This document shows, one piece after another, positions 3,275 through 58,217 of a stretch of 64,000 nucleotides of DNA; position 1 is the stretch's first letter, and the number at the start of each line of letters is the position of its first letter. Under the pieces are notes generated by a model. The model had not been told where the DNA came from. It saw only the letters and a list, made by a program, of their open reading frames with translations, and searched no databases. Source of the DNA: Bdellovibrionales bacterium. Lineage in GTDB: Bacteria > Bdellovibrionota > Bdellovibrionia > Bdellovibrionales > JAUICD01. The stretch spans positions 960,001-1,024,000 of the forward strand of contig OZ253553.1 of the NCBI GenBank assembly GCA_965262715.1, read 5' to 3'. The translations under genes and the position numbers were made by a program.

Positions 3275-3419
3275 TTAACATTGTGTCAAAAAACAAAAGG
3301 TATCTTTCCTCCTAAAAATGATCAAGCTTTCTAGGCAGTCAGCATTTTATTGACGGTGCCAACCGTCAAGCTGGCTGCCAAAAAGTAGCCAGGGGCTAGA
3401 TCATTTTTAGGGAAACTAG
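3275..3419 (-). repeat. Structured repeat family A, full copy
   Basis: Reverse complement has the same stem order as the 44.4-kb copies: aaaaatgatc/gatcattttt, tagcc/ggcta, ggcagccagc/gctgactgcc, ttgacggt/accgtcaa. Confidence 0.8.
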
Positions 3420-3490
3420 CATCCCCTATTCCTTTAGATACAAAAAATATTCTCAATCCACAATTTTCAATGAAACCAATTATTTCTACT

Positions 3491-3599
3491 AATTCCTTAA
3501 ATTTCTACCATAAAATGAGAATGTAGTGGTACAAAATCACATATCCACTGTAACTAACTAAAATAACTCAACTTTATTTTCGCAACTGTCAAACTCAAG
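3491..3599 (+). mobile_element. Solo right end of the IS1634-family element
   Basis: Near-identical to 33017-33125 including the terminal ctgtcaaactca(a/g)g. Confidence 0.85.
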
Positions 3600-3600
3600 A

Positions 3601-3972
3601 ATTTGGATAATGGTAAAGAGTTTTTATGTCATGAGAAGATCAGTGAATATACCGGATGTAAAGTTTATTTTGCACATCCTTACACTTCCTATGAGAGAGG
3701 TTTAAATGAGAACACGAATGGTTTAATCCGTCAGTATTTTCCAAAAAAGACAGATTTTAGAGAAATCACCTCTAAGGATCTAAAAAGGGTTGAGTTTCTT
3801 TTAAACCATTGCCCTTGAAAGAGTTTAGGTTTTCTAAGTCCTCATGAATTTCATAGACAGAAAATGGTTTGTTGAAATCATTATTAACTCAACTCCTACT
3901 CTCAACATCCTGGTAACAATTTATTATGAGGCAACACCCACGACACCTTAAGTTGCACTTGCGATTTGAAGT
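3601..3972 (+). pseudogene. IS30-family transposase 3' remnant with right end
   Basis: DNGKEF...YFAHPYTSYERGLNENTNGLIRQYFPK motif; premature TGA at 3816 followed by KSLGFLSPHEF; IS30-like end gttgcacttgcgatttgaa at 3952-3970. Confidence 0.85.
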
Positions 3973-4078
3973 TATATTTTGCTATTTTTACAGTATTTTA
4001 AATATAATTTCTCCTTGTGTTTTTAGATAGTTACATAAATTATTGTCGCAAAAATGTCGTAAACATGTCGTAAACTTA

Positions 4079-5185
4079 TTACAAATTGAAACCTTCTTTT
4101 AGAGTGTAAAACACCTTATGTGTTGCATCTCTAGCTATAATAACTTTTTTATCAATCATATCTTTTAAATCTCTTTGTAATGTTCTCTTGGTGATTTTGG
4201 AAGCCAATCTTCCTTTTGAAGTTTTTTTCTTAACAAGTTCCATTTTTGTACAAAGATCGTCAAAGTCTTTTGGAAAAAGTTTTTCATTTTCTAAAATATG
4301 CTCTACAATCACTTCTTGCCTCTGAGATAGATTATGATTTTGTACCAAGACATCCTTTAGAATGACTTTTTTTCCTATCTCCATAACTTCATTCATTTGA
4401 AGCAAAAAGCCTTTTACAAAATAATCCAACCAATCTGTCATATCCATATCTTTATTTTGTTCCACAGATCTGATGGCTTTGTAAAAATTTTGTCTATCCT
4501 TATCATAGTATTCACTGATAGAAAAAAGTCTTTTAAAATCATAACCTGACTTATAAAGATAAAAAGCACAGAGTAAGCGAGAGGTTCGCCCGTTACCATC
4601 TACAAAAGGGTGGATATGAACAAATTGAAATTGGATGATACCACTTTTTAAAACTGGATGAATTTTTGAATCTTGATTGATCCATTCTACAAGTTCTCTC
4701 ATAAGAGCAGGTACTTCTGTTGGTTTAGGAGGTATATAAACAATCTCCTTTGTGACCGCATTACCTATATAATTTTGTATATTTCGATACTTTCCTGGCT
4801 TAGCACTTCCTCCACGTACTCCTTTAACTAGCTCTTTGTGAATCTCTTTAATCATAAATTCTTGAATACTAACTTCTTTTTTTAAATAATCTGAGACCAA
4901 ATTAAAAGCATCTCTATAATTTTTAACTTCTTTGATGTCCTGTCTGTCAGCATTCAGAACTTGTTTTCCAGCTAAAATCTTTTTAGATTGTTCAAGAGTC
5001 AACTGTGTTCCTTCTATGTGAGTTGTATGATGTGTTTCTAAAAGTAGGGCATTTCTACTCATTTTTTTGACCCATTGATTTGAAAGATGAGCTGCTTTTA
5101 AGAAGCCTCTGGATTGCTCAATTTGCATTAAATTATTCAATATAGATTGAGTAATTTGAAATTTTGGAGAGAATTTTCTTTTCAT
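4079..5185 (-). CDS. Fic-family protein with C-terminal HTH
   Basis: Canonical HPFVDGNGRTSR motif; TKRTLQRDLKDM DeoR-like helix; start moved to ATG 5185 with SD AGGAAGG. Confidence 0.9.
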   Translation of the reverse strand: MKRKFSPKFQITQSILNNLMQIEQSRGFLKAAHLSNQWVKKMSRNALLLETHHTTHIEGTQLTLEQSKKILAGKQVLNADRQDIKEVKNYRDAFNLVSDYLKKEVSIQEFMIKEIHKELVKGVRGGSAKPGKYRNIQNYIGNAVTKEIVYIPPKPTEVPALMRELVEWINQDSKIHPVLKSGIIQFQFVHIHPFVDGNGRTSRLLCAFYLYKSGYDFKRLFSISEYYDKDRQNFYKAIRSVEQNKDMDMTDWLDYFVKGFLLQMNEVMEIGKKVILKDVLVQNHNLSQRQEVIVEHILENEKLFPKDFDDLCTKMELVKKKTSKGRLASKITKRTLQRDLKDMIDKKVIIARDATHKVFYTLKEGFNL

Positions 5186-5267
5186 TTGAGCCTTCCTAAA
5201 GTTTTTAGACCATATTTTTGGGAAACAAGCCAAAAATAGTCAGAGACCAGTTTATTTTGAGTGAAAC

Positions 5268-5344
5268 TGGCGTACCCGGCACGATTCGAACGTGCAACCA
5301 CCAGATTCGTAGTCTGGTACTCTATCCAGTTGAGCTACGGGTAC
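5268..5344 (-). tRNA. tRNA-Arg(ACG)
   Basis: GTACCCG acceptor stem, CCAGA-CTACGAA-TCTGG anticodon arm, GTTCGAATC T-loop, encoded CCA. Confidence 0.97.
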
Positions 5345-5663
5345 ATGGTCTTATATCTATTTTAGAATTTTACTTTGAAACTATCATATAAATATCAACA
5401 AGTTAACGGTTGCCAGTCTGCCCGACTGCCGGAATATTGAAATACTGGCTCAAACATACAAGAAATCTGTTTATATCTGTAAAACAAAACCTCTTCATCA
5501 TAATTTACAATACTCTAAAAGGTAAATTTTTAACAAGGCCTAACAAGAATCTATAGTAAAATAATCCTCATTATTTTTAAGATATTAAATAGGAAGTAAT
5601 ATGACGAATGGGATATTTGCAAGGAGTGAGTGGTACACAATAAGCAAGTGGTATTAAAAAATA

Positions 5664-5704
5664 AAAGGCTATGGTTAGTGTTTATCCACTCAACATAGCC
5701 TTTT
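5664..5704 (-). terminator. Intrinsic terminator after the outer-membrane protein gene
   Basis: aaaaggctatg...catagcctttt hairpin with A/T tails. Confidence 0.65.
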
Positions 5705-5742
5705 AAAAGGTATTTAAAAATTATTACTCTGCAGTTATTTCA

Positions 5743-6429
5743 TTAAAAGTGGTAACCCACTCCTATTGTGGCATAGACACCGTTAAACTTGCTATTACAA
5801 TCAAATTCTCCACTTGCATCTAGGGTATCATCTTCGGTACTACTTCCTGAACCTGATAATGAGCATTTTTTAAAAGAAAGTAAATCATAACCACCTTCTA
5901 GTTTCATTAGAAAATTAGGAGTTATTTTATACCCAACTTCTACACCTATTTGAGCAGTGAAGTTATTCCATAAAAATTCACTACTACTTATATCTAGATT
6001 AACATTAGCATTTTCACCAGTGCGAAGTGCAGAAAGATTACGATTATCACTATAATGCTTCCAAATATCCAAACCAAGAATAGGTCCCAGAAAGAGAGCA
6101 TCCATTTCAAATCTATAATTTGCTAAAAGAGCCACTCGATGCTTATTTCGCTTTCCCGATGTACTTATAGATGCATCGCCTACACTAGCTGACCCTGATG
6201 CTGATTTAGAATAAAATCGATATCTTGGCCCAATACCAAAACTAGAATTTTCATTTATAGATATACGGTAAAGAGCATCTGCACCAAAATGCCATGCACC
6301 ATCTGTTTGGAATTTTTTACCAAAATGAGCTGAAATTTCACCACTTCCATAAGCAAAAGAAGAAATTCCTAGTAAAACTGCTGAACAAATAAATAAGTTT
6401 TTAAGTAAATTTTTTTTAAATTGATTCAT
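5743..6429 (-). CDS. Outer-membrane beta-barrel protein, paralog of 20418-21065
   Basis: Signal peptide, alternating beta-strand pattern, C-terminal GVYATIGVGYHF. Confidence 0.8.
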   Translation of the reverse strand: MNQFKKNLLKNLFICSAVLLGISSFAYGSGEISAHFGKKFQTDGAWHFGADALYRISINENSSFGIGPRYRFYSKSASGSASVGDASISTSGKRNKHRVALLANYRFEMDALFLGPILGLDIWKHYSDNRNLSALRTGENANVNLDISSSEFLWNNFTAQIGVEVGYKITPNFLMKLEGGYDLLSFKKCSLSGSGSSTEDDTLDASGEFDCNSKFNGVYATIGVGYHF

Positions 6430-10338: not shown

Positions 10339-10346
10339 GTATTTAT

Positions 10347-22161: not shown

Positions 22162-23433
22162 ATGAATGCTCATTCTACACTTACAATTGAGGAAAAAGTC
22201 AGTTTTATCAATAAAGATGAGAAAACTTATGGAAGTTTTGCTGAGATTGGAGCAGGGCAGGAAGTAGCAAGATGCTTTTTTCAAGCTGGACTTTCCTCTA
22301 ATACAGTAGCTAAGACTATTTCAGCCTATGATATGACATTCAGCGATGCTATTTATGGCAGGGAAAAATCAGGACGTTATGTCTGTGAAGATCGTTTGAT
22401 CAAAATGCTAAATCATGAATACAAATTGATAGAAGAACGTTTAGGGCAAAAAAGGGGTCACAACACCCAGTTCTTTGCTTTTGCAAATACAGTAGCTGCA
22501 AAAAGCTATAGTGTGGCTAATGGACATGGTTGGCTAGGACTTCGATTTCAAAGACAATTTTTAGAACCTCCAAGCGATATCATTATTCATGTGAATCTAT
22601 TAGATCCAAGAAATCTTTGGCAAAAAGAAGCTATAGGCATTGTGAGTGTTAATCTGATCTACGCAGCTTTATACCTTAGGAGTGATCCAAGTCAGTTATT
22701 AAAATCTTTATTTGATAATCTTAGACAAGACCGTATTGAAATTGATATGGTGAGATGTTGCGGGCCTGCCTTTTCATTTGTAGATCACAGGTTAATGAAT
22801 CTACATCTTGTGGAATTCCTGTTAGGGCGATGGGCAGTTTTTGGTCCTCATAAAAAAGTTCATCAACCTTCTGAGATTTTTTATGGAAAAAATGTACTGA
22901 TTCACAAAAAAGAACCTCATGTTAAATATACTGCATCTGTCACAAAGCAATTTCTTAATGATTATGATGTCAAATCAACAGATATAATGAACCTTGTAGA
23001 GATCAATTTAGAAGATTTTTCAAAAAATACAAATCTCGATAATTTTTTATCCCGTATAGATAAACTCAATGCTCAAGGTTACTATGTTTTGTTTAATAAT
23101 TATCCAAATATCGCTCATCTTAGCCAAAGATTAAAAACACAAAACATTAAGTCATCTGCATTTGTTTTAAAAATGCAAGACTTAGAAAACTTATTTAAAA
23201 ATCATGATCAATATCAAAAATTTAGTGGAGGTGTCTTAGAAGCTATGGGACAGTTATTTAGTGGAAACACCTCATTATATGTCTACCCTTATCAAGAAGA
23301 GGAGAAAAAGAAAGAACAACTTTCATCAATTAGATCTTTTATTCCTAAAGCACCATATCATAATATTTATGATTGTCTTGTTAAAGAAAACAAAATCAAA
23401 GATATTCAAATAAACTCTGATATTTTTTCTTAG
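22162..23433 (+). CDS. Conserved protein of the YGxFAEIGAGQEV family (function uncertain)
   Basis: YGSFAEIGAGQEVARCFFQAG, ISAYDMTFSDAIYG, FFAFANTVAA, GHGWLGLRFQ, RIEIDM, LYVYP. Confidence 0.75.
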   Translation: MNAHSTLTIEEKVSFINKDEKTYGSFAEIGAGQEVARCFFQAGLSSNTVAKTISAYDMTFSDAIYGREKSGRYVCEDRLIKMLNHEYKLIEERLGQKRGHNTQFFAFANTVAAKSYSVANGHGWLGLRFQRQFLEPPSDIIIHVNLLDPRNLWQKEAIGIVSVNLIYAALYLRSDPSQLLKSLFDNLRQDRIEIDMVRCCGPAFSFVDHRLMNLHLVEFLLGRWAVFGPHKKVHQPSEIFYGKNVLIHKKEPHVKYTASVTKQFLNDYDVKSTDIMNLVEINLEDFSKNTNLDNFLSRIDKLNAQGYYVLFNNYPNIAHLSQRLKTQNIKSSAFVLKMQDLENLFKNHDQYQKFSGGVLEAMGQLFSGNTSLYVYPYQEEEKKKEQLSSIRSFIPKAPYHNIYDCLVKENKIKDIQINSDIFS

Positions 23434-23483
23434 AAGCCATCTCAAAAATAAAATTTTATATCACCCGTTGAGAAATAAAAATA

Positions 23484-23794
23484 TTTTCCTTAACATTATG
23501 TTAAGAACAAGCAGTATCTCCCTCCTAAAAATAAACGGATTTTTGAGGCAGCCAGCATTTTACTGAAGGGGATACATCCTGCAAGCTTAAGTCTTCATGC
23601 TAACTGTAATAGATAATAACCATTTCCCTAACATAGTGTTAAAAAATGAGAATATCCTACCTACTAAAATGCATCAATTTTCTAGGTGATGACCATACTG
23701 ACAGCGTAAGCATGTCAAGGTCATCACCAGAAAGTGGCCAGAGGCTCGCCTCTGGAGGCTCGCCTCGAGAGGCCAGATGCATTTTAGTGAAATG
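23484..23794 (-). repeat. Structured repeat family A: one partial (23484-23587) and one full copy (23621-23794)
   Basis: Stems aaaatgcatc/gatgcatttt, tggcc/ggcca, ggtgatgacc/ggtcatcacc; two gaggcgagcctc mini-hairpins in the second loop. Confidence 0.8.
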
Positions 23795-23981
23795 GATTAG
23801 GGAAATGAAATAGGTGCAAAAATTTAAAACAGATCCCTGTTACCTGATACTGATGCCAGAGTGCCGGTTTGCCAGATCCCGGAAGAAAAGAATGCTTAAC
23901 TAGTTATGAACCTAGTTTTTTTCTATCTATTTACTTATAAAAATGTTACCTATATAGCTTAAAAATATAAAGGAGCTATAT

Positions 23982-30856: not shown

Positions 30857-31172
30857 ACCATTTACCCTATTATCTTATCATAAAAAATCTTCTAAACTAT
30901 CTTTATATAACCAAAGAAATCTAAGGAGTATAACTTATTCTAAAACTTTTTAAATTGGTATTTATAAATTCGATAGTTTTAATTTTAACTTTAAACTCTT
31001 CTATTCTTTTAGGTTTTGGGATGAGTGATCAAGAATTAGATCAAGCTATTCGCAAATACTTATCAATTTACAATAACTACCAGATAGATGAAAACATAGA
31101 TGAAAATATTGTTAATAATTTTACCAGATTAATTAGAGATCATTCTAATATGTTTAACTACCTTGCAGAACT

Positions 31173-33125
31173 CCTGAGTTTGACACTTAATTTGAATTTT
31201 CGTGATATTTTTTTCAAGGAATGTTGTATTTATAGTCATTAGCGGTTATTGTGTTTGTATTTTGGTCAAAAAGTGTAGTGTACTTATTTATCATACACTA
31301 CGCGTCATATACCTTATTTTCTTTTATTTTTTATATTTTTCTTGTAATGTATTTTTATGTTCATAAGGTCTACAAGAAATCCGAGAGGAGACATATATTA
31401 TCATCTTGTTGAGAGCTACAGATTAGGTTCTCAAGTGAAGCAAAGGATTCTAATGTCTTTAGGTAAAGCCGCGGATAAGGAAGTTAACTTGAAGAAGCTT
31501 CTAGAAGTATTATCTAAAGAGTTAGAGATAATTCCTGCTAGTAAGTTATTAAAAGAGATTGATGTAAAAGACACTTTTATTTTAGGTCCTTTGCTTATAA
31601 TAGATACTATTTTTAAACAATTAAATCTCTATAGATTATTAACAGATTTAAAACAGAAGCATCGTAAAGTGCAATTTGATTTTGTTAAGATTATTTTTAC
31701 ATTGGTTATAAGTCGTTTTGTAGAGCCTTGTTCTAAGCTTAAAGTATTTTCACACTGGCAGAAGTTATTTTATCCTGATTTTTTAGAAGGGGAGCTTCAT
31801 CTTCAAGACATTTATCGTTCTTTAGATATTCTAAGTAAGCATAAAGAAGATATAGAGAAGACTCTTTATATGCGAGGTAAGTCTCAATTAAGTTTTTTCA
31901 ATGAGTGTGATGTTATTTTGTATGATTTAACGACATTGAGATTTGAGAGTACCCGTGAGGATTTAGATAATCTTCGAAGGTTTGGTTATAGCAAAGAGAA
32001 GAGGAGTGATTGCACACAAGTGGTATTTGGACTTTTAGTAGATACAGAAGGTATGCCCTTAGGCTTTGATGTTTATCCTGGGAATACATTTGAAGGTAAA
32101 ACAATACCTTCAGTTATGACGAAGCTAAAAAAGAAGTTTAAGATCAGAAGATTTATATTAGTAGGAGATAGAGGTTTATTTTCTAATGAGAATCTCCAAT
32201 CATTAAAAGCAAAGGGAGATGAATTTATAGTAGGATTAAAGCTAGGTTTATTAAAGGATCGTCATGCAGAGATATACAATTTAAAGAATTTTAAATTTAT
32301 AAATGAAGATTTAGCTATATACGAGACAAGCTATAATAATGATCGTTGTATAATTACCTGGTCGAGAAAGAGAGCAGAACGAGATAAGAAAGTAAGAGAA
32401 GATATTCTATCTAAGATAGAAGCTCAATTATCAAAGAAGTCCATAAGCACAAGATCTTTTTTATCTAATAGTAATTATAAGAAGTATATTGTTCATCCTA
32501 AGAGTAAAGGCAAGCCTACTTTAAATAAGTCAGCTATAGAACAATCAGAGAGGACAGATGGTTTTTTTGGAATAATTACAAACACAGATTTAAGCTCTGA
32601 AGAGATTATAATGAACTATAAGCAATTATGGAAGGTAGAGAATTCATTTAGAGAGTTGAAGGGTACATTAAAGACACGTCCTATGTTCCACTGGACAGAT
32701 AAGAGGATATTAGGTCATTTAGTTGTGTGTTTTTTATCTTACTTATGTGAGGCTTATTTTGCAAAGAAGTTACATCAAAGAAACATCACATTAAAAGATA
32801 AAGCGATCACAGACAAGAGAATAAAGTCAAGGCCATTGAGTGTAGCGGAAGCTATGTCAAAGCTGAAAGAAGTACGAGCTATACCTGTCAGATATAAAAA
32901 CAAAACTATTTGGATAAGAACAGATATTTATGGCAATAACGCTGATGTATTTAAAGCTATAGGAGTTAAGATCCCATCAAAACAACTTAAAATTGAATCT
33001 ACTTAAACCTACAAACAATCTCTTAAATCTCTACCACAAAATCAAAATGTAGTGGTACAAAATCACACATCCACTGTAACTAACTAAAATAACTCAACTT
33101 TATTTTCGCAACTGTCAAACTCAGG
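31173..33125 (+). mobile_element. IS1634-family insertion sequence
   Basis: Terminal IRs cctgagtttgaca / tgtcaaactcagg; flanking 107-bp direct repeats 31066-31172 and 33126-33232. Confidence 0.93.
31357..33006 (+). CDS. IS1634-family DDE transposase
   Basis: YYHLVESYR, LYDLTTLRFES, FGYSKEKRSD, VGDRG, YKQLWKVENSFRELK, RPMFHWT. Confidence 0.93.
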   Translation: MFIRSTRNPRGDIYYHLVESYRLGSQVKQRILMSLGKAADKEVNLKKLLEVLSKELEIIPASKLLKEIDVKDTFILGPLLIIDTIFKQLNLYRLLTDLKQKHRKVQFDFVKIIFTLVISRFVEPCSKLKVFSHWQKLFYPDFLEGELHLQDIYRSLDILSKHKEDIEKTLYMRGKSQLSFFNECDVILYDLTTLRFESTREDLDNLRRFGYSKEKRSDCTQVVFGLLVDTEGMPLGFDVYPGNTFEGKTIPSVMTKLKKKFKIRRFILVGDRGLFSNENLQSLKAKGDEFIVGLKLGLLKDRHAEIYNLKNFKFINEDLAIYETSYNNDRCIITWSRKRAERDKKVREDILSKIEAQLSKKSISTRSFLSNSNYKKYIVHPKSKGKPTLNKSAIEQSERTDGFFGIITNTDLSSEEIIMNYKQLWKVENSFRELKGTLKTRPMFHWTDKRILGHLVVCFLSYLCEAYFAKKLHQRNITLKDKAITDKRIKSRPLSVAEAMSKLKEVRAIPVRYKNKTIWIRTDIYGNNADVFKAIGVKIPSKQLKIEST

Positions 33126-34055
33126 ATTTACAATAACTACCAGATAGATGAAAACATAGATGAAAATATTGTTAATAATTTTACCAGATTAATTAGAGAT
33201 CATTCTAATATGTTTAACTACCTTGCAGAACTTGAAACAGACGATGAGTTTTTATCTTATTTAGAAAAATATTCAGACTTAAAACTTAAGTTTACCGGTC
33301 ATCCTATAGATCCAGATGTTAAGGTGACATTTATTACGAATTCTTCCTCTTACTATAATAAAATTATTCAAGGAAAACCTGCTGTTTGTGATCCATTCAC
33401 TCGCATTATTTTTTTTGACCCTCATTTTTGGAGATCACAGGAAGGTTATGAGAGAACAAGGGAAAGAGTTTTATTCCATGAACTAGGACACTGTGACCTC
33501 TATAGAAATCACAGTTCATTAGAAGACTCTTCTTTTATGCGTGTTAGAGGTCTTGAGACATTGCTAGCTTCTCATCCTACAAATTTAGATGATATTTTTA
33601 ACAATTTATATGAAGAGCTTTTTGCTGAGCGAAATACTATACATATTAAATGCTATACTATAGAGATAGATGAAGATGGTTTAGAAAGAAGAATTACTCC
33701 AAATCATTGTATGCCAAACCAAAACAGAGCTTTCCAAGATTTTAAAGATATAAGTGTTCCAATTTTTCAGCAATTAATTGGGCTATTCTTTCTAAGAAAC
33801 TATAACAGTCGTTCTCTATAGAAATAGAAAAAATTTAGATGCCAAAATGGAAAGATGGCAGATTTATTCCATTAATTCCCAACACTATAAAATTATATAT
33901 ATCGATTACATAAAAAATAAGAAGTCTTGCAAGTAGCTCTTAAAAACCCTTCTGCTCCTAATTCTCCTATAAGATAATCAGCAATATCTATATGACTTTG
34001 ACTACTTGCATTTAAATATTTACATGCTGTGTTAAAAAAGAGGAATTTACCCTAC

Positions 34056-38986: not shown

Positions 38987-39227
38987 TAGAACTCATCTCA
39001 AAATTAATTCTAATGTCCACGTTTTCAAAACGACCTCTTAACTTAAGTACCACATAAAAGGACTGTTTCACTCAAAATGGACCCTTCCGGCTTTCCGTAG
39101 AGCCACTATCGTGGCTCTCGTCAAGTCTGTCCATTTTGAGTAAGAAGCCATCTTTAGTTACGTTATGTTTTATATTTTGCAATTTCGTATTATTTACTGC
39201 TATCATGTATTTTTGAGATGGCTTCTA
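38987..39227. mobile_element. MITE-like element (IS1182-like ends) holding a short family-A-like structured core
   Basis: tagaactcatctcaaaa ... ttttgagatggcttcta; internal ctgtttcactcaaaatggac...gtccattttgagt at 39063-39141. Confidence 0.6.
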
Positions 39228-40801: not shown

Positions 40802-40909
40802 ATATCTTTATCGAGAAGTTTCATAGAAATACTCTAGTTCTACTTGAACTTTGATATTGAGGATTGGAGTTTTTTTGAAATACATGAATTCTGTAAGGGG
40901 TGCATACCA

Positions 40910-41866
40910 ATGACGAAACATCCTCATGATATATTTTTCAGGAGTTTTTTTTCTTCTGTTGAAAGAATAGAGAGATTGCTAAAGACAATATTACCTAAAG
41001 ATATTTTGAGTCTTTTTGATTTGTCTACATTAAAGATGGAGCCTAGCGTTATTGTTAAAAAATCAGAGATTAGGGTAGATATGGTATTAAGTATAATGCT
41101 TAAGAACTCTAAGAACAAAGTTAAGGTTATTTTAATTTTAGATCACAAAAGTTGGCCAGATAAGAATGTGATACAGCAATTACAAAAATATCAATTAATG
41201 ATAGTTAATGAATATTGTAAGAGTGAAGTTCTACATCCAGTACTTTGCATAATTTTTTATCATGGTGGTAAGAGATGGAAGAATCCCTCTTCTTTGCATG
41301 AAGATTGGGTATCTAGAGGTCTTTTTTCAAAAGAAGATTTTAAGAAACTTTCACCGTATCTTATGAATTTTAGACCTTATGTGTTTGACTTGTCCAAGTT
41401 TGATATACCAAAACGAGCTATGGATAGTATGAAGTCAATTCTATATGCATTTGAAGATATTTGGTCTTTAAGGAAGTGTAAGAATAGAAAAGAGAGAAAA
41501 GCAGTATTACGTAAAACTTTATTATCAGTAAAAAAAGACTTAAAATATGAGTCAAAACAGTATAGAATGGATGTGTTATTAGCTATAAAGCAATATTTTA
41601 TGAGTTACGACTCACAGATAGATGAAGATTTATTTAAGGAGGCTTCAAAAGAGGTCACAGAAGAATTAGGAGGAGACAATATGGTAGACGAGCTTGATTT
41701 TACTATGGCAGGTGTAATACAAAAAAAGGTGAAAGAGCAGGTACAGGAAAGCCAAAAAAAGATCACATTGAAGTTACTTAAGGCTGATATGAGTGTAGAA
41801 AAGGTATCTGAGATCACCGGTCTTTCAAAGCAGGAAATTCGAAAGTTTCAAGAAGATGATAGTTAG
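40910..41866 (+). CDS. Rpn-family (YhgA-like) PD-(D/E)xK nuclease, copy 1
   Basis: HPHDIFFR, DLSTLK, RVDMV, ILDHKS, IIFYHG...W, C-terminal VSEITGLS helix; start moved to ATG 40910. Confidence 0.88.
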   Translation: MTKHPHDIFFRSFFSSVERIERLLKTILPKDILSLFDLSTLKMEPSVIVKKSEIRVDMVLSIMLKNSKNKVKVILILDHKSWPDKNVIQQLQKYQLMIVNEYCKSEVLHPVLCIIFYHGGKRWKNPSSLHEDWVSRGLFSKEDFKKLSPYLMNFRPYVFDLSKFDIPKRAMDSMKSILYAFEDIWSLRKCKNRKERKAVLRKTLLSVKKDLKYESKQYRMDVLLAIKQYFMSYDSQIDEDLFKEASKEVTEELGGDNMVDELDFTMAGVIQKKVKEQVQESQKKITLKLLKADMSVEKVSEITGLSKQEIRKFQEDDS

Positions 41867-41874
41867 AGGATATT

Positions 41875-42528
41875 ATGGATAAACCTGATTTTACTAAGAG
41901 TATAAAAAAGGAAGAGAAGATATTAGTTTTAGAAGAAATACTTTTATCTGTAAAAAAGGAGTTAGAGTTAAAAGATCATACTAAAGATTGTATACTGGAG
42001 GTGACAGATGAGATACTGACATTTCTTTATAATTACGATCAAGATTTAGATAAAGGGCTTGTAGAAGAAGCATCCAAAAGAGTAGCAAAAAAGTTAGGTG
42101 GAAAAAGTATTATGAAAGAGCTTGCTTCTTTTAAGGACACAGAAAAAAAACGTCAGTTATCAGTTTTAGAAAAAACATTCTCATCACTAAAAAAAGACTT
42201 AAAAAATGAGTCAAAAGAATATGTAATGGAAACAACAGGAATGATACTAACATATTTTTACGATTACAATCCAAGCTTAGATAAGAAGCTTGTAGAACAA
42301 GCTTCCAAGAAAGTAACAAAAAAGTTAGGAGGAGAGGATATTATGGAAGAGCTTGATTTTACTATAGCAGGCGCGTTGCAAAGAGGAATACAGAAAGGTC
42401 GAAAGGAAGAGAGGCAAAATATTATTTTAAAGATGCTTAAAAATAAGGTGAATGTTCAAACAATTATTAAATACACTGGAACTTTAAAAAAAGAAGTGCT
42501 AGAGATTCAAAAACAAGCTAATCTTTAA
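41875..42528 (+). CDS. Rpn-derived protein with no nuclease domain and a duplicated helical module
   Basis: Two copies of the LSVKK(E/D)L...YD..LDK.LVE.ASK.V.KKLGG..IM module, then an Rpn-type tail. Confidence 0.75.
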   Translation: MDKPDFTKSIKKEEKILVLEEILLSVKKELELKDHTKDCILEVTDEILTFLYNYDQDLDKGLVEEASKRVAKKLGGKSIMKELASFKDTEKKRQLSVLEKTFSSLKKDLKNESKEYVMETTGMILTYFYDYNPSLDKKLVEQASKKVTKKLGGEDIMEELDFTIAGALQRGIQKGRKEERQNIILKMLKNKVNVQTIIKYTGTLKKEVLEIQKQANL

Positions 42529-42720
42529 GAAATCTTAAAAAATATCTATTTATCTCAATCCCAAAAAGCATATATGCTATTTATAAACATAAAAACTATC
42601 AAGACATAGCTAACAGATACAGTTTGCTGACCTTGCCAACCTACCAGATTCCTGGGAACTTAAGTTTATTTGTTGTGTGAAAAATAATAACGATTCTTAT
42701 TAAAAAATTAAAAATGTATG

Positions 42721-42816
42721 AAATCCGGATTCGATGTTTGAAATCCGGACAATATCTTGGGTTTTATAATCTAAAACCCACTTTTACCTGCATTTTAACA
42801 TGGCATATATCTTGCT
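42721..42816 (+). promoter_or_regulatory. Sigma-54 promoter module, copy 2
   Basis: aaatccgga at 42721 and 42741; TGGCATATATCTTGCT at 42801-42816. Confidence 0.75.
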
Positions 42817-42876
42817 TATACTTTATCTATAAATACTTTAAGAAGAGCATATAAATAACATGAGGAGTCAGAAATA

Positions 42877-43830
42877 ATGATAAAGAGCAAAGAAAGTTTT
42901 CAAGTTGAGCATGATCAAACTGCTAAACTAGGTCTTAAGCATAAGGATAGGTTTAAAGATTTTTTAAAATTTGGATTGAGTTTTGAAAAATTTCAAGCTC
43001 TTGATTTGGATTGTCTTGAGTTTATTGATACAGAATTTTTACAAAAAGGTTTAAATGAAAAATTTCGATCTTACAGAGCTGATGTGATCGCTAAAGTTGG
43101 CTTAAAAACAGAAGACACAAAAGTTTTTGTAGGTATTATCGTAGAACATAAAAGTCATCATGAATCTGAAAAAAGGCTTTTTCTTCAAGCTTTAAGATAC
43201 AACTTAGCTCTTCTAGAAATAGATCTTTACCCTATTATAACTGTTTTGTTATTTCATGGAAAAGCTCCTTTAAATATATCTCCTAATTTACAAACAGTTT
43301 TTCATTTGAAATCAGAAACTAAGCGTATTTTTGGGACTTCTTCTTTAAGTTTTGGGCTAGATATGATAGATTTAAGAAAGATACCTAAGGAGGATATAAA
43401 AGGTAAGGCAGGTACGGCATCTGCTCTTTGTTATGCTTTAAAAACTTCTTTAGATATGACAGAAAATGATATTAAATCAGTATTTGAATTGTGTAAAAGA
43501 GATAGTAAAGATTCTGCAAGATATCGTGAATATGCTGGTTTTTTAAGTAGATATATGCTACAGAGTACAGAGTACACAAGGTTAGCACTTCATGCAATTG
43601 AACAAAAAATTATTACAAATAAGGAGGATCGGGTTATGCCAAGTACAGCTTCTAAAATATTTAATGAAGGAATAGAGCAGGGAATTGAAAAAGGAGTCGA
43701 ACAAGGGGCTGAGAAAGAGCGTAGAAAGATTGCTTTAAATATGTTAAAAACTGGTGTTGATATTCAAGTGATTCTTGATGCTACAAAGTTAAGCAGGGAA
43801 GAGTTAGAACAGCTTAAAAACAGTTTTTAA
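42877..43830 (+). CDS. Rpn-family nuclease, divergent copy
   Basis: EHDQTAK, YRADVI, IVEHKS, LLFHG, EGIEQGIEKG...IALNML...ATKLSREELEQL. Confidence 0.88.
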   Translation: MIKSKESFQVEHDQTAKLGLKHKDRFKDFLKFGLSFEKFQALDLDCLEFIDTEFLQKGLNEKFRSYRADVIAKVGLKTEDTKVFVGIIVEHKSHHESEKRLFLQALRYNLALLEIDLYPIITVLLFHGKAPLNISPNLQTVFHLKSETKRIFGTSSLSFGLDMIDLRKIPKEDIKGKAGTASALCYALKTSLDMTENDIKSVFELCKRDSKDSARYREYAGFLSRYMLQSTEYTRLALHAIEQKIITNKEDRVMPSTASKIFNEGIEQGIEKGVEQGAEKERRKIALNMLKTGVDIQVILDATKLSREELEQLKNSF

Positions 43831-43942: not shown

Positions 43943-44814
43943 GTTTGAGCTATTTTGTAACCTAATCTGTTTCACTAAAAATGCATCTAATTCTGTTTCA
44001 CTAAAAATGAATCCGCCTCTGGCGGTTTTCTGGCAATAAGCCCGACAGTCTTTTGCTGTCGGCAAATAGCTTATTGCCTAGAAAACATATTCATTTTGAG
44101 TAAAGGAGATACTCTTCTTTATTTAACAAAATGTTAAGGAAACTATTTATCATTTTTTATCGCTATGTTTGAGCTATTTTGTAACCTAATCTGTTTCACT
44201 AAAAATGCATCTAATTCTGTTTCACTAAAAATGAATCCGCCTCTGGCGGTTTTCTGGCAATAAGCCCGACAGTCTTTTGCTGTCGGCAAATAGCTTATTG
44301 CCTAGAAAACATATTCATTTTGAGTAAAGGAGATACTCTTCTTTATTTAACAAAATGTTAAGGAAACTATTTATCATTTTTTATCGCTATGTTTGAGCTA
44401 TTTTGTAACCTAATCTGTTTCACTAAAAATGCATCTGACCTCTGGTCACTTTCTGACAGTAAGCCTGAAGATTCACATCTTCAGCAAATAGCTTACTGCC
44501 TAGAAAGCTTGATGCATTTTTACTAGAAGAATATCCTCGTTAATTAACAAAATGTTAAGGAAATCGTTTATTATTTTTTTTATTCACTATGTTTGAGCTA
44601 TTTTGTATCCTAGTTTGTTTCACTAAAAATGCATCTAGCCTCTAGCTACTTTTTGGCAGTAAACCTGAAGATTCACATCTTCAGCAAATAGCTTACTGCC
44701 TAGAAAGCTTGATGCATTTTTACTAGAAGAATATCCTCGTTAATTAACAAAATGTTAAGGAAACTGTTTATCATTTTTTATCGCTATGTTTGAGCTATTT
44801 TGTACCCTAGTTTG
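43943..44814 (+). repeat. Tandem array of four family-A structured elements separated by five ~25-bp direct repeats
   Basis: gtttgagctattttgta(a/t/c)ccta starts at 43943, 44167, 44391, 44591, 44788 (periods 224, 224, 200, 197). Confidence 0.92.
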
Positions 44815-45269
44815 CAGGATATTCTAAAGTCACCAAAAGTCAATGGCTGACATTTTAAACGGTTTGTAAATTCTAAATTCGGCTTAGTCCAGCAGTGATA
44901 GACTCTGAAATCATTAAATGTATTGGTAGATATGATATCTCTGCAAGCTCTTACGGCGTAATTGCTTCTTAGTAACTTACAGTCTTCCTCTCTTTTGCAA
45001 ATACCTAAAAAAGACTCGATAACTCCACCTGTCCTTAAAATTTCCTCATGATTTATATCGTAGTTTTTGTAAATAATCATTTGAAAAGCTTCTGTATCTT
45101 CCTTTAAGCGCATGGATAGGCGAAAGTATTCTATCTGTCTAAACTGCTCTAAGTTAAAATGATCGATAAAGGTGTAGATAACTCCAACACCTACAATCAA
45201 AACCCAGCAATAAACCCAATATTTATATTTTCTAAGTATCCTTAAATACTTTATAAATGGCTTCATCAT
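44784..45269 (-). CDS. Pilin-associated membrane-anchored protein, copy 1
   Basis: One N-terminal TM helix, Cys-rich; nearly identical to 53718-54206; directly downstream of the pilin. Confidence 0.8.
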   Translation of the reverse strand: MMKPFIKYLRILRKYKYWVYCWVLIVGVGVIYTFIDHFNLEQFRQIEYFRLSMRLKEDTEAFQMIIYKNYDINHEEILRTGGVIESFLGICKREEDCKLLRSNYAVRACRDIISTNTFNDFRVYHCWTKPNLEFTNRLKCQPLTFGDFRISCKLGYKIAQT

Positions 45270-52232: not shown

Positions 52233-52671
52233 GTTATTTTTTCTTCTATAAGTTCAATAAAAAATATCTTTCTGTAGATGCCTTTAAAATACCATTTTTA
52301 CATCTTATTCACTTTACAAATTCAACTTTAGTTTAGCAAAAACTACATAAGTCTTAAGCAATTAAGACCAGGTCAGGTAGTATAAAAATCTAGTTTTTTC
52401 CAGAAAGGGTGACAGCAAAATAGTTAAGTAATTTTAGCTACTTGATACTGTAACTTTTATATATAAGTCACAGTCAAAACTCAGCCATTGGTAGTGTAAG
52501 TGACTGAATCTAACTAAAAGACTTGAAGTTATAAGTGTCTACATGTTTAGTACCTCAGCATTTCATTACTTTTTGAACATCCATCTTAAGCTTTTCAACC
52601 TTAATGAATGATGAAAAAAACAAAGCATGATTGTTATTAAGAATAATAATAAAGGAGATAAAAAATGAGAT

Positions 52672-52839
52672 CTAGTTTCCCTCAAAATAAACCAGCCTCT
52701 AGAGGCGAGCCTCTAGCTGTTTTTGGGCAGTCAGCCTGAAGATTCACATCTTCAAGAAAATGCTGACTACCTCAAAAATCCGTTTATTTTAAGGAAGGAG
52801 ATACTCCTCATTTTTTAACACCATGTTAAGGAAATTATT
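52672..52839 (+). repeat. Family-A element inserted at the pilin 2 start, flanked by a ~25-bp duplication
   Basis: taataaaggagataaaaaatgagat (52647-52671) and taataaaaggagatagaaaatgagat (52840-52865); absent at the paralogous pilin 1 start. Confidence 0.88.
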
Positions 52840-52858
52840 TAATAAAAGGAGATAGAAA

Positions 52859-53620
52859 ATGAGATTATCAAGACTTAAAATATATAAGATGTATAGGAGA
52901 AGTCGTTTTGGTAGACAAGGCGGTTTTTCATTAGTTGAATTAATGGTGGTTGTTGCGATCATTGGTATCTTAGCAGCCATTGCCATTCCGAACTATCAAC
53001 GTTTCCAAAGAAAAGCAAGACAGAGTGAATCAAAGATACTAGCATCAGGCCTTTACAATGCTGAAAAGATGTTTATATCAGAGCATGGATTTGGTTCTAC
53101 AAATTTGCACCAAATTGGCTTTACTCCAGATGGTACTGTTAACTATATGGTTGGTTTTGCAGCAGTTGAAGGAGGTACAAAAATCAATCAATCCACTAGG
53201 CAAGTTGGTTTTCATGGCCCTTTACCTGAAAAGGCTGGTGGTGATCTTACTACATTTCATGTATGTGGAGGAGGTATTACTGGCACTCTTTCTTCTGACG
53301 CACCCGATTGTACAGTTGCAACGGGAGCAGATAAAGACACGAGTGGTGTTCCTTTAACTAACTTCCCAACTGGTATAGCTGATTTTCAAGCTTGTGCAAA
53401 TGCTAGCAACACAGGAAATTGTAGTCCTGCACCTGCATGTAATAATGTTGGATCTGGAGCTAACTGTAGTGTAGTAAGTGCTGCTGCTATGGATAATACA
53501 GGTAGAAACAATGTAAGTTTTTCAATTGGAGCTATAGCAGCAATAGGCGGCAACAAAGATGATGTCTGGGTTATGAGCCAGGATAAAACTTTAAAAAATG
53601 TTCAAGATGGAACTCAATAA
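52859..53620 (+). CDS. Type IV pilin, copy 2
   Basis: Same prepilin leader and N-terminal helix as copy 1, divergent middle, same QDGTQ end. Confidence 0.92.
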   Translation: MRLSRLKIYKMYRRSRFGRQGGFSLVELMVVVAIIGILAAIAIPNYQRFQRKARQSESKILASGLYNAEKMFISEHGFGSTNLHQIGFTPDGTVNYMVGFAAVEGGTKINQSTRQVGFHGPLPEKAGGDLTTFHVCGGGITGTLSSDAPDCTVATGADKDTSGVPLTNFPTGIADFQACANASNTGNCSPAPACNNVGSGANCSVVSAAAMDNTGRNNVSFSIGAIAAIGGNKDDVWVMSQDKTLKNVQDGTQ

Positions 53621-53669: not shown

Positions 53670-53701
53670 AAAGCCATCTAGGTAGATACTTAGATGGCTT
53701 T
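53670..53701 (+). terminator. Hairpin terminator/attenuator after pilin 2
   Basis: aaagccatcta-N10-tagatggcttt then tatttt. Confidence 0.7.
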
Positions 53702-53717
53702 TATTTTATGAGGTTTT

Positions 53718-54206: not shown

Positions 54207-54607
54207 AGGATGGTTTAAGAAGAAGGCTCGGGTAATAAATACAGTACTGAAAATTAAGTAACAATAAAAATAACATAAATATATTAGCAACCAGAGTTAA
54301 AGCACCTAAGAAGTGAGACATTATGAAAGCACATACTGATAACATTTTAACAAGTTTTTTTTTAGGGCTGCTTGGCGGTACAATTGTAAGGATTATTTTC
54401 TTATACGTTAATCAATCTACTTTAGATATAAATATCTATAAGACCTTTCTGATAGGTTTGATGATAGATAGCTTGGTGCTTTCTGTACTATTTTTGCCTA
54501 CTTTATTCTTTTTAGTCGCTCGTATACATCTTTTACATCTTTCTAAATGCCTTTGGTTTATATTAAAGCTTCAAAGGTTTTACCTTTTTACAGTTATCTC
54601 TTTATTT

Positions 54608-56014
54608 GAGGTTGTCCCATAGATCGGTGAAATTTTCTTATAGAAATTAGAAGAAAGTAGAGCTCCCGGCTATCCTAAGTGGTCTAGCCGTTGTTTACTG
54701 TTTTTATTTTATCAGGAAATAGATAACAGAAAGGAGCTATTATGAAGAGTAGTAAGAATGGTTATTCAATTCAAGTTTTATCATCTGAGTCAAATGAGAT
54801 TCGAGAGATCCTAGAGCATCGCATGAGATCAATGGTTATTAATATGATCCATGATTTCTTTGAGGATGAGTTATTATCACTGTGTGGTAAGCGTCATGGT
54901 CGTGGTCGTGATACAAGATATTACAGAGCGGGTAGTGATTCTGGGAGTGTTCTTGCACAAGGTCAAAGGCTTCAGGTGAGGAAGCCTAGGGTGAAGGAGA
55001 AGGGAGGTTCTGATATTAAGCTGCGGTCTTATTCAGTGCTTCAAAAGTATGACATACTTTGTGATAAAGTTTTGAGTCATGCTATGAGAGGGGTATCTTG
55101 TCGTAATTACAATGAACTTCTTGATGATATTGTAGGAGGAACGGGTCTTTCTAAGAGTACAGTGAGCAGAGTCTTTAATAAGTCATCTAGGAAGTTTCTT
55201 GAATCTTTAAATGGTCGTGATCTGAGTAAGGATAAGTTTTCATCAATTATGATTGATGGTGTTGTTTTTGGATCAAGGACAGTGGTTGTAGCTCTTGGCA
55301 TCACAGTTGAAGGTAAGAAGTTAGTTCTGGGTCTTAGAGAGGGTCATACAGAGAACTGGGAAGTTTGCAAGGACTTATTAGAGAGTTTAATAGCAAGAGG
55401 TCTTTGTTCAGATAAGCCTTACCTTTTTGTAATTGATGGTAGCAGATCTTTAAGGACAGCTATTAATAGAGTTTTTGGTAAGAGAGCAGTAGTTCAACGC
55501 TGTATTCACCACAAGGAGAGGAATGTTTTAAGTTATTTACCTCAGGAACGTCATTTAGAGTTTAAGCGTCGCTGGAAGATGGTGCATGGTTTTAATGATT
55601 ATGATTCTTCTCAGAGAGAATACAATAAGTTACTGAGTTGGTTAAGCAGGATTAATTATGCAGCATTGGCTTCACTTAAGGAAGCAAAGGAGGAGACACT
55701 GACAGTTATCAAGTTGAAGGTATCTCCACTGCTAAGGAGAACCTTATCTTCTACAAATCCTATTGAGTCTGCCTTTTCTATTGTAAGAGATAAAGTCAGC
55801 AGGGTTAAGAACTGGAGAAGTTCTTCAGATCAGGTCATGAGATGGGCTGCTGTTTCTTTAGTTGAAGCTGAAAAAAAGTTTAGAGCTATTAAAGGGTATA
55901 AAGATTTAAATACAATGGAAGAAAATTTAAACCTATTGACTAACAATAGAAACAGGCGTAGCAAAACATCAAGCTCTGCTTAACTTCAATTTCACCGAAA
56001 CGTGGGACATCCTC
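54608..56014 (+). mobile_element. IS256-family insertion sequence
   Basis: IRs gaggttgtcccatagatcggtgaaatt / aatttcaccgaaacgtgggacatcctc; 8-bp target duplication ctttattt (54600-54607, 56015-56022). Confidence 0.93.
54742..55983 (+). CDS. IS256-family transposase
   Basis: GVSCRNY, LSKSTVSR, IMIDG, VALGI...GKKLVLG, FVIDG, QRCIHHKERNV, STNPIES. Confidence 0.93.
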   Translation: MKSSKNGYSIQVLSSESNEIREILEHRMRSMVINMIHDFFEDELLSLCGKRHGRGRDTRYYRAGSDSGSVLAQGQRLQVRKPRVKEKGGSDIKLRSYSVLQKYDILCDKVLSHAMRGVSCRNYNELLDDIVGGTGLSKSTVSRVFNKSSRKFLESLNGRDLSKDKFSSIMIDGVVFGSRTVVVALGITVEGKKLVLGLREGHTENWEVCKDLLESLIARGLCSDKPYLFVIDGSRSLRTAINRVFGKRAVVQRCIHHKERNVLSYLPQERHLEFKRRWKMVHGFNDYDSSQREYNKLLSWLSRINYAALASLKEAKEETLTVIKLKVSPLLRRTLSSTNPIESAFSIVRDKVSRVKNWRSSSDQVMRWAAVSLVEAEKKFRAIKGYKDLNTMEENLNLLTNNRNRRSKTSSSA

Positions 56015-58051
56015 CTTTATTTTTGTTAAGCTCTTTTGTTGATATCTTTATCTTTCAGGTTTACCACCATAGGCTTAATGGATCTCTGATCACACAAGTT
56101 TTAAATATGCCTTTCGCGATGTTGTTTAATATGATCCAGTCACATTTTAGCTATGAAATATTGATGGTTCCTCTTTTAGTTATTATCGCTTATAGCTGTA
56201 CATGTTGGCATATCTCTATTAAGAAAACTCATCGATTCTTCTCAAAGAGAATTGGCAGTAAAGCTTATAAAGAACTGCCTTTAAAACAGCAATTACAAAC
56301 ACTTCTAATTCCTTATTTATTGATATTTATTTTTACAAGTTTTATTTATGTCCCTACCTTTTCTTCAAAATCATTTGATCAAATTATTTATGTACAGCAA
56401 AAAGAGTATACTTTGCAGGCTGCATCTAAAAACTCTTTTTTATACCTCTTTCAAGAAGTATTCGCATATGAATCTCATTATGATGGTTTTAGAAAAGATT
56501 GGATGGAACATAGATATGATTTCTTAAAAAAAGATTTTCAAAGATTAGTCAGTGAAGATAGCGTTGAGTTTGTAGAGAATTATAAAAATTTTTTGAAAAG
56601 ATCGAAGAATCCAAAAAAAGAATTCCAGACTAAACCTCATATTGTCTTACTCAATGTTGACTCTTTATCTCAGAGATTTCTGGAAGATGAAAATCACCTT
56701 CCTTACTTAAAAGAGATGGTCAGTGATGGAGCTTATTTCACTGATTTTTACTTTCATTATGGAAGTAGTATGAATGCTTTTATATCTTTATTATTTGGCC
56801 TGCCTATGATCCATCGACAGGATTTTTTTATGGATAGTATTTTTAAAAAAACAAATAAGATATCTTTAATGAATATTCTGAAAAATGAAGGATATAAGTC
56901 AATATATCTAGAAGGATGCACTTATGATCACTATCAAGTGAGTGAAACTTTTAAAAAATATGGAGGGTATAAAGCCATCATAAAAACACATTTTAAATCT
57001 TCTTTAAATAAGGATAAATATATGTGTACAGCTAATGATTATCAACTAGCTAATAGATCTTTATCAGAAATAGAAAAAATTTACAAAGAAGCGCCTCTTT
57101 TTGTTAAAATACATCTTATGACAATACATTTTGCTGGAAATATTCCACATGTTGAAGCTCATGGATATCCAAAATCTTTTGATATAAAAAAACACTGTAA
57201 AATATCTAAAGACTCTATATATAAAGAAAGGTTACAAAACGGACTATGTTATACAAACTTTGTAGTTAAAGATTTTATTAAAAAAGTCAGTGACTTAATA
57301 GGTGATAATCTGATAATAGTTCTTACAGGTGACCATCGCATATGGCAACCACATCCTTATAAAGAAGAAAGTTTAGAACCCATGCAAGTCCCTTTGATTA
57401 TTTTAGATAAAAGGGGGCTGACACCAAAAGGTGTGATTGATAAAGTCGCTTCACATCAAGATGTTGCGCCAACACTGCTTTATATGATTGGTTATGAGGG
57501 AGCTTACCCCTTTTTAGGTAGAAATCTATTAGACAAAAATGAAAAAGAAGGGCTTACTGCTTTTCAAGATAGAGATTTTTATAGTTTTAGAACAGGGAAA
57601 TATCTTTTATCATATTATAATAAAGAATCTCATCTTTTTGAAATAACTAAAGATAAAATAAAAGTTCCTTTAGATAATAATGACTTAAGGTTAAGGCTTG
57701 AAAAAGATTTTAAGCAGTATATGGCAGGGCTTGCTATGTGGAACTCTGTCGACCACGTCATAGAGCAAAAAAAACAATAACCTTACTTAAATCTCCGGGA
57801 ATCTGGCATTCAGGCAAACTGGCAATCTGTATCAGGCATTATCATTCACGTTCAACCTTTGTATTTGAAAGCACTTTATATTGAATGCTAACAATATAAG
57901 AATTGTAAAAGCCAATGATAAGAATGAGAAAGAGGCTCGCCTCGAGAGTCTGGCCTTAAAGTAATGAATTTCAAAGTTCAAGAAATAAATTGAAGGTTCA
58001 GCTCAACAGAACTTGTTTCCAGATTGCCAGAGGAATACCTTTTTAGTGAAA

Positions 58052-58217
58052 CGATTTCCTTAACATTTTATTAAATAATGAGGATAACCTTCTACTAAAA
58101 ATGCATCAGGCTTTCTAGGCAGTAAGCTACTTGCTGAAGATGTGAATCTTCAGGCTTACTGCCAGAAAGTAGCCAGAGGCTTACCTCGAGAGGCTAGATG
58201 CATTTTTAGTGAAACAG
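58052..58217 (-). repeat. Family-A element directly after the Rpn copy 2 stop
   Basis: Reverse complement ctgtttcactaaaaatgcatctagcc...ggcagtaagcctgaagattcacatcttcag...gcttactgcctagaaag...gatgcatttttagtag; begins 3-4 bp after TAA. Confidence 0.88.

Follow-up and report, generated by a model that had tools for sequence, protein, structure and literature searches.

A mobile, recombining repeat with a covarying three-way-junction fold in a Bdellovibrionales genome

The 64,000-nt window analyzed here (NCBI GenBank contig OZ253553.1, positions 960,001 to 1,024,000, forward strand) belongs to the 2.94-Mb genome of a Bdellovibrionales bacterium, designated G000. Interspersed among its tRNA, pilin-like, and Rpn/YhgA-like genes are copies of family A, a non-coding unit of 150–160 nt. 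This element is a mobile, recombining DNA repeat. It is also very probably a selfish one, because about 465 copies with a conserved fold are found in G000 and copies are missing at the same sites in close relatives.

The element in the window and its fold

From 5′ to 3′, the unit comprises the motif YTG-TTTC, the 5′ strand of P1 (13 bp), P2, P3, an internal loop, P4, the 3′ strand of P1, and a tail. P1 closes a three-way junction formed with (i) P2, which has 5 bp and a TCT loop and is often enlarged by extra 14-nt hairpins, and (ii) P3/P4, in which P3 (16 bp including a bulge) is followed by an asymmetric 2x6-8 internal loop and by P4 (8 bp). The tail has a stretch rich first in purines and then in pyrimidines, followed by TTWACA-NN-ATGTTARGGAAA; past its GGAAA runs a further pyrimidine-rich extension, variable and about 10–15 nt long. 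The following features of family A and its immediate targets lie in the window, with matches of a profile hidden Markov model (HMM) in brackets.

3272..3421, minus strand: full copy (HMM 3275-3417); the tail stops at GTTAA, the final GGAAA is lost, and the copy abuts another short palindrome
5222..5266, minus strand: 5′ stub (HMM 5222-5269), joined one base past the CCA end of tRNA-Arg (5268-5344, minus strand)
23481..23606, minus strand: 3′ remainder (P3-P4-P1′-tail) of an older copy, broken by the 23623 copy (HMM)
23623..23792, minus strand: full copy with two extra 14-nt hairpins in P2 (HMM 23619-23796)
23815..23885, minus strand: heptamer-repeat arm plus the beginning of a leader, both resembling IVP (four-helix-bundle) cassettes; the 23.5-kb insertions went into this target
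39063..39145, plus strand: short variant with the P1 ends kept, a different interior, and no tail; after it comes a distinct small element whose inverted ends are AGAAGCCATCT
43964..43989, plus strand: 5′ stub before the first array copy; the stub is repeated at 44188-44213
43996..44142, plus strand: array copy 1, identical to copy 2 (the four array matches span 43991-44768, HMM)
44220..44366, plus strand: array copy 2
44418..44563, plus strand: array copy 3, of another subfamily than copies 1 and 2
44618..44763, plus strand: array copy 4
52651..52671, plus strand: left-hand repeat of a 21-nt target duplication that spans the ribosome-binding site and the start codon of the pilin-like gene 52859-53620
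52672..52844, plus strand: full copy (HMM 52673-52838); its core is 52676-52834, and the junctions hold extra bases, 4 on the 5′ side and 10 on the 3′ side
52845..52865, plus strand: right copy of the 21-nt target duplication, with one mismatch
58055..58214, minus strand: full copy starting 6 nt past the stop of the Rpn/YhgA-like gene 58221-59309, then another 5′ stub (HMM 58051-58218)

The 23623 copy is nested inside the older copy, whose 5′ stub lies at about 23797-23805. Each of the four array copies precedes the same flank of about 50 nt, which is the end of the open reading frame (ORF) 44784-45269, and part of this flank also stands before array copy 1.

The HMM, which was trained on 100 copies and applied at E<=1e-3, recovers 465 matches in G000 (63,858 bp, or 2.2% of the genome) and none in the reversed genome, which served as the control. 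The dispersed element recognized in the original prediction is therefore real and genome-wide. Full-length copies number about 303–307, and 279 of 303 could be anchored at both ends. Nine copies of the 39063-type short variant, which is not caught by the HMM, are also present in G000.

The fold is real and covarying, and it has no match in Rfam. In an alignment of 147 non-redundant copies with a median pairwise identity of 70%, 11 column pairs are significant over a tree-based null, and all 11 fall within P1–P4; two of them are paired in <80% of copies. The test was our own implementation of a G-test with average product correction against 20 tree-based null alignments, not R-scape. Two-sided changes, counted in 57 distinct copies from three sources, occur in 32 of 48 pairs (P1 8/13, P2 5/5, P3 12/16, P4 7/8, tail 0/6), and 93.5% of paired cells are complementary versus 80.9% after shuffling, a count that favors the proposed structure because the structure was drawn from the same sequences. 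Folding of one copy gives z = -6.9 for DNA and -6.0 for RNA. With Rfam 15, the window gives only tRNAs at gathering level, the best other match reaches 22.6 bits against a threshold of 43, and no match in the four-copy array comes close to a threshold.

The copies at the positions first reported and all 13 stem pairs quoted for them are present, and covariation in P1–P4 passes the tree-aware null. The “four-stem” layout stands as to the stems themselves but not their arrangement, since P1 closes a junction of P2 and P3/P4. The tail ascribed to all full copies is present, except that the 3275 copy lacks the final GGAAA. The pairing proposed within the tail shows no compensatory change, and the tail continues into the variable extension. 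At most positions of the tail hairpin, G-T is tolerated more than A-C on the top strand. The TTAACA..TGTTAA tail was also weighed as a dif-like or attC-like site, a reading rejected because the spacing does not fit the consensus. The reported lack of terminal inverted repeats is nearly right: the two ends share a weak, imperfect 9-nt inverted match (5′ TTTCMCTMA versus the reverse complement of 3′ TTARGGAAA).

Two other repeats accompany family A. A separate small element with the inverted ends AGAAGCCATCT...AGATGGCTTCT occurs at 39142-39225 and 23431-23455 of the window, has 83 end motifs in the genome, and often sits at the end of P1 in family A variants. Another palindromic repeat family, TTGATATTTTAAGCCAA...GGCTTAAAACATCAA (L003:1680-1790 and many other sites in G000), frequently neighbors family A.

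Distribution, mobility, and insertion footprint

Family A was found only in G000, in G001 (a 90% complete genome of the same genus), and in G004, both by BLAST over 31 genomes and by the covariance-model search that the original prediction had recommended. The latter was run over 141 genomes of the order with 22 candidates per genome scored, so that weak relatives can be missed. All matches in G004 lie on contigs C1, C4, and C11 (L058-L060, L178-L180), which are about 90% identical and syntenic to G000, whereas the large contigs of G004 mostly show 47–67% protein identity. Judged by this identity and synteny, C1, C4, and C11 are mis-binned sister-strain contigs contaminating that reference genome, and because the G004 matches sit on them, the element was found in one genus only. 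Plasmid and phage collections held no match, 34 tail-motif matches in viral contigs included none reaching into the element, and two patterns gave 0 matches in JGI metagenomes. A GTDB pattern scan, in which 72 of the 73 loci among the matches listed came from one record, does not bound the distribution. No description of the family, or of IVP cassettes as mobile units, was found in openly readable papers.

Filled and empty alleles distinguish closely related strains. A contig of run X6 (record 18) follows the window from 53159 to 52845 and resumes at 52650, thereby skipping 194 nt (52651-52844) that correspond to the element (159), one 21-nt repeat, and the 4 and 10 extra bases. Another X6 contig is without the composite at window 23413-23970, and two intergenic sites that are empty in G000 are occupied by copies on the sister-strain contigs. 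Only such single clear cases were used, since the 90 filled/empty candidates among the matches listed are noisy and many are repeat composites. An exact empty-site search within G000 returned 11 rows, mostly self-matches or flanking repeats.

Of 213 sampled full copies in G001, 10, 31, and 82 have a counterpart in unrelated flanks at an identity of >=99, >=97, and >=95%, versus 0, 2, and 6 of 254 in G000. Because near-identical copies in unrelated surroundings abound in the former, the burst is recent in G001 and older in G000. Copies also recombine: downstream of rpsQ, G000 and the sister strain have orthologous copies at the same site, with flank and P1 in common but P3/P4 different. The tail is the most variable module, with 120 haplotypes in 205 G001 copies against 16–58 for the others. 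Tail distance is uncorrelated with that of the core modules (Spearman -0.04 to 0.17), and in 355 pairs with <=2% core divergence the tails differ by 16%, mostly by C/T. Copy shuffling and relaxed pairing explain this variability, with error-prone synthesis being another possibility. The folded RNA or single-stranded DNA (ssDNA) under structural selection that had been predicted is thus supported in that its fold covaries, but the element is not a conserved RNA gene, because it is polymorphic between strains, found in one genus only, and inserted into its own copies and other repeats.

The ends of the element are unequal, the 5′ end being sharp and the 3′ end loose, and the junctions are fuzzy overall. 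No fixed short duplication (2–10 nt) rises above shuffled pairs among 227 copies. Direct repeats of >=15 nt abut both ends of 12 of 173 blocks (6 of 126 singletons), compared with 0/172, 0/171, and 0/173 in mismatched controls, 0/126 in shifted ones, and 2/300 at random positions. About eight of the 12 are independent, given that three lie in one composite, two CRISPR loci may represent one event, and one is an element stub. Apart from that 16-nt stub, the duplications measure 21–86 nt; a tRNA fragment and a CRISPR repeat are among the sequences hit. Where copies are nested in other repeats, target deletions of 1–60 nt together with extra bases are often seen, as exemplified by the loss of 42 nt of an older copy at G000 699414 and of 3 nt of an IVP leader at 2507592.

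The 5′ junctions cluster at the stem bases and loops of folded targets. The P2 loop of an older copy is the 5′ junction in 21 of 244 copies in G000 and 40 of 208 in G001, and the tail loop of copies is also used, on the opposite strand. At tRNA/tmRNA genes, the 5′ end lies <=4 nt from CCA in 5 of 39 cases, versus 21 of 2184 stop codons within 12 nt, and in 2 of 39 it sits in antisense orientation at the 5′ end of the tRNA. A copy is found within 100 nt of 11 of 38 tRNA calls versus 180 of 2184 ORFs (p = 2e-4). Another multi-copy repeat is touched by 116 of 231 blocks, compared with 862 of 3000 random non-coding positions. By our own reading of the table of 47 arrays, the 3′ flank alone is repeated in 11, the 5′ flank alone in two, both in 10, and neither in the rest. 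ORF calls overlap 15 of about 307 full copies, and the 17 overlaps examined are all element-derived frames or gene ends; no whole in-frame copy was found inside a host gene in G000. Copies disrupt genes and promoter regions, their orientation to neighboring genes is mixed, and there is no replichore bias (123 versus 108).

The CRISPR array at G000:C1:482092-483082 (28-nt repeat, 60-nt period) holds a family A copy flanked by a 24–25-nt repeat duplication. A lone CRISPR repeat at 490461-490641, on the far side of a cas-like operon, likewise holds a family A copy with a 24–25-nt duplication. At G000:C1:2198524-2198960, four tandem degenerate tRNA-Trp-like copies with an 89-nt period precede an intact tRNA-Trp gene.

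Candidate mobilizers and mode of transposition

The original prediction had suggested looking for a copy attached to a gene for an HUH enzyme, a reverse transcriptase (RT), or a nuclease; none was found, nor was an ORF family flanked by split element ends among the matches listed. In G001, where the mobilizer search covered selected families, neither profile nor protein queries detected an RT in the 90% of the genome that is represented. G000 has three RT matches, with types assigned by eye: a full-length group II-intron-type RT (L011:1126-2523), an internally deleted copy of it (L013:1282-3054), and a 590-aa protein that carries a retron-like RT at its C terminus and is inserted behind tRNA-Asp (L014:1285-2145). 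RAYT (NF047646) was found in neither G000 nor G001, nor was the IS110 DEDD recombinase (PF01548). The single Y1 gene (PF01797) of G000 is IS200-like with its own ends, G001 has none, and a Y2 search in G001 was blank with its control silent too. The PF07282 (TnpB) match falls in a frame of >1300 aa. No small GIY-YIG nuclease was found in five genomes, each of which has a single UvrC-sized frame (612–653 aa), and Ku and archaeo-eukaryotic primase (AEP) primase/polymerase were likewise not found in five genomes including G001. Transposases of the rve (IS3/IS30) type and of IS1595 were not detected in G001. None of the insertion sequence (IS) ends compared matches the element (IS256-, IS3-, IS30-, and two IS1634-like elements in G000; IS1634 in G001), and the IS5- and IS1595-like ends in G000 are only partly resolved. 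Among the families sought, G001 contains three IS1634-like genes with ends unlike the element, 16 Rpn genes, and 14 IVP genes.

Several candidates were rejected. Tyrosine recombinases number only two per genome in the genus, and the flanking of small HNH genes near copies is inconsistent. One such protein, of 105 aa, occurs in three copies in G001 (L173:189-506, G001:C1:1885034, and 1030659), with a serine-recombinase gene near the L173 copy. Of the Rpn/YhgA-like genes, three lie in the window (40844-43830 and 58221-59309) and 19 in the genome; two of the window's three have a family A copy just downstream. Rpn-like clusters as a whole have a copy downstream in 3 of 38 cases versus 200 of 2184 ORFs, which is no excess, and G003 has 16 Rpn genes without the element. 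Rpn/YhgA was therefore rejected as the cognate enzyme; a role as an unspecific helper is possible.

The heptamer-armed IVP cassette is the best lead for shared machinery. IVP genes lie <=500 nt from a copy in 12 of 19 cases in G000, versus 399 of 2184 ORFs, and IVP cassettes do so in 14 of 14 cases in G001, versus 39 of 76 ORFs from loci that were picked because they contain copies. Because the junctions differ between IVP cassettes, this neighborhood suggests that insertion took place independently and repeatedly. A G001 heptamer arm stands after the 3′ end of the element in 55 of 208 copies and before the 5′ end in 8 of 208; 49 of 379 tail motifs are preceded by a heptamer arm, 31 of them at one offset. 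The IVP protein matches PDB 2GSC, and we take IVP proteins to be relatives of Avd; the IVP cassette is not known to act as a catalyst. Multi-copy PF05635 genes occur in G000 (19 loci), G001 (14), G021 (18), G025 (11), and G026 (7), and also on the large contigs of G004. Heptamer arms were read on IVP loci in G000, G001, and G004, and some matches in G021, G025, and G026 are back-to-back inverted pairs. The cassettes at G000:C1:2560600-2561300, 818600-818800, and 923000-923800 lie inside or beside GGTTCATGACA ends, similar to those of the IS1595-like element in this genome. A family-wide co-occurrence of element and IVP looked perfect and was dropped, as the G004 element matches are on mis-binned contigs and its IVP genes on large contigs.

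We estimate at about an even chance a model in which family A is a non-autonomous selfish DNA element recognized through its fold. In this model a trans-acting nuclease would copy it, in the form of a folded single strand, into staggered nicks in hairpin-forming DNA, 5′ junction first. A nick at a folded target would expose a 3′-OH to be joined to the sharp 5′ end of the element (YTG-TTTC). Synthesis would then proceed through the element and end within the loose 3′ tail or past it, at times taking the 3′ flank along and so giving rise to element-plus-flank arrays, and the position of the second nick would decide between duplication and deletion. Copies would subsequently swap whole helices and tails, with only fold-keeping exchanges going on to spread. 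As to the nature of the folded strand, the evidence leans to DNA because junctions occur at both ends of tRNA genes, on opposite strands.

Several observations weigh against this mode of copying. With no enzyme found, the steps up to the second nick are inferred from footprints. Long duplications are lacking in 161 of 173 blocks, and decayed target may account for some of the 3′ “extra bases”. Each X6 joint is supported by a single contig at a depth under 3, and later deletion between direct repeats could also produce an empty allele. The top-strand preference for G-T wobble in the tail is as compatible with RNA as with ssDNA. With regard to the IVP lead, the 3′-side bias of heptamer arms is strong only in G001 and absent in G000 (5 versus 4 of 244), and genomes in which no element was found also have IVP cassettes in abundance. 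A more specific scheme, in which the element is a non-coding parasite of a transposase-free, RT-free route shared with IVP cassettes, the IVP protein binding the three-way junction and recruiting host nucleases and polymerase for copying into tRNA, CRISPR, or repeat hairpin nicks, is held to be possible but unlikely. If true, it would amount to a new way for DNA to move and a first function for the IVP family.

Insertions of non-LTR retroelements, which lack long terminal repeats, leave variable duplications or deletions and extra junction bases. The footprint of family A resembles this, and a retroelement akin to short interspersed nuclear elements, whose folded RNA is recognized in trans by an RT and inserted by target-primed reverse transcription, would also accommodate the hypervariable tail and its mostly G-T mismatches on the top strand. 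A full-length group II-intron-type RT and a second RT are available in G000, and the Avd protein mentioned above is a charged pentamer that works with the RT of diversity-generating retroelements (available portion of PMC6182149). This is nevertheless an unlikely origin: G001, which has the youngest copies (31/213 versus 2/254 at >=97%), yielded no RT, the sharp end of the element is the 5′ end, and junctions lie at both tRNA ends on opposite strands. Mobilization as a miniature inverted-repeat transposable element (MITE) by an IS1634-family DDE transposase is less credible still and may be called quite improbable. IS1634-like elements are present in G000 and G001, one such family in G000 has 50–312-nt direct repeats at 9 of 16 full copies, and the element has its weak 9-nt inverted match, but the IS ends CCTGAGTTTGAC and CCTGACTTCGTC are unlike either element end and are precise where those of the element are fuzzy, often with deletions. 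Moreover, a DDE enzyme would not need P2–P4. The window itself contains an IS1634-like element (31066-33232) with a perfect 107-nt target duplication; for IS1549 and IS1634, repeats of 8–514 bp by an unexplained route are described in part of PMC2266710.

That the element is a true REPIN or Ssn-type repeat, with the cognate HUH (RAYT) or GIY-YIG gene lost or located on an unassembled replicon, is improbable as well, even though extragenic hairpins, flank-carrying tandem clusters, and insertion into existing copies are known for REPINs and REPs (portions of PMC3116915 and PMC3733652) and the 5′ TGT(T/C/A) start is similar to TGTC, a variant of the CGTC tag. No RAYT occurs in either genome, Y1 is restricted to the IS200-like gene noted above, the GIY-YIG matches are UvrC-sized, and the recent spread in G001 needs an active enzyme; the unit is, furthermore, asymmetric and not an inverted doublet. 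Little probability attaches, finally, to the view that covariation stems from hairpin-templated correction and gene conversion instead of selection, or that the element has been domesticated as a regulatory RNA or terminator. In favor of this view, copies exchange modules, the two strands of the core have about the same folding energy, and 24 of 279 copies begin within 30 nt of a same-strand stop codon. Against it, the 2x6-8 internal loop, the bulge, and the junction persist where a perfect palindrome could have resulted, and long-range P1 pairs covary across the junction; the mixed orientation, the even replichore distribution, and the disrupted genes and promoter regions speak against it too.

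Comparison with known systems

Many bacterial palindromic repeats have no known mobilizer, and family A offers unusually good handles on the problem, namely (i) hundreds of covarying copies, (ii) a recent burst in a genome in which no standard enzymes were found, and (iii) filled and empty alleles. The candidate proteins (IVP, Rpn, and the IS1634 transposase) are open to laboratory testing. Should the mobilizer be a lost or unassembled RAYT-like gene, family A would be one more dense repeat family.

Like the REPIN/REP-RAYT systems, family A exists in hundreds of extragenic hairpin-forming copies, forms flank-carrying clusters, and inserts into its own copies. It differs from them in being a single three-way-junction unit with different ends in place of an inverted REP doublet, in having no RAYT found with it, and in its long variable duplications or deletions. 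CGTC repeats resemble it as directional hairpins with a TGT-like tag before the stem, and the Ssn GIY-YIG ssDNA nuclease provides a precedent for cutting beside a folded repeat (available portion of PMC11893778). Their tag precedes an 8–9-bp stem with a 4–5-nt loop, whereas the stem of family A encloses about 80 nt; the element is much longer and branched, and no small GIY-YIG gene was found in five genomes. IS1634 and IS1549 share the long variable target duplications (PMC2266710, in part), and IS1634-like elements are present in both element genomes, but the element ends are unmatched and imprecise. MITEs of DDE insertion sequences are set apart by their IS-matching terminal inverted repeats and fixed-length duplications, neither of which was found for the element, and derivation from IS200/IS605 or IS91 is at odds with the absence of Y1 from G001 and with junctions that are imprecise and not duplication-free.

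The likeness to Rickettsia palindromic elements (RPEs) drawn in the original prediction, by description and not by sequence, extends to a size of about 150 nt, self-complementarity, dispersal, and lineage restriction (PMC10969869, in part), and ends at the position relative to genes, as no family A copy is whole and in frame within a host gene. The heptamer-armed IVP cassettes (23S_rRNA_IVP, PF05635) are similarly multi-copy, lack a transposase, and are interleaved with the element both ways; they are distinguished by coding for a protein, by their heptamer arms, and by being common in genomes without the element. Family A is best described as a REPIN/RPE-like, probably selfish element read by its fold, and it departs from REPINs, RPEs, MITEs, and Ssn repeats in features that define each of them.

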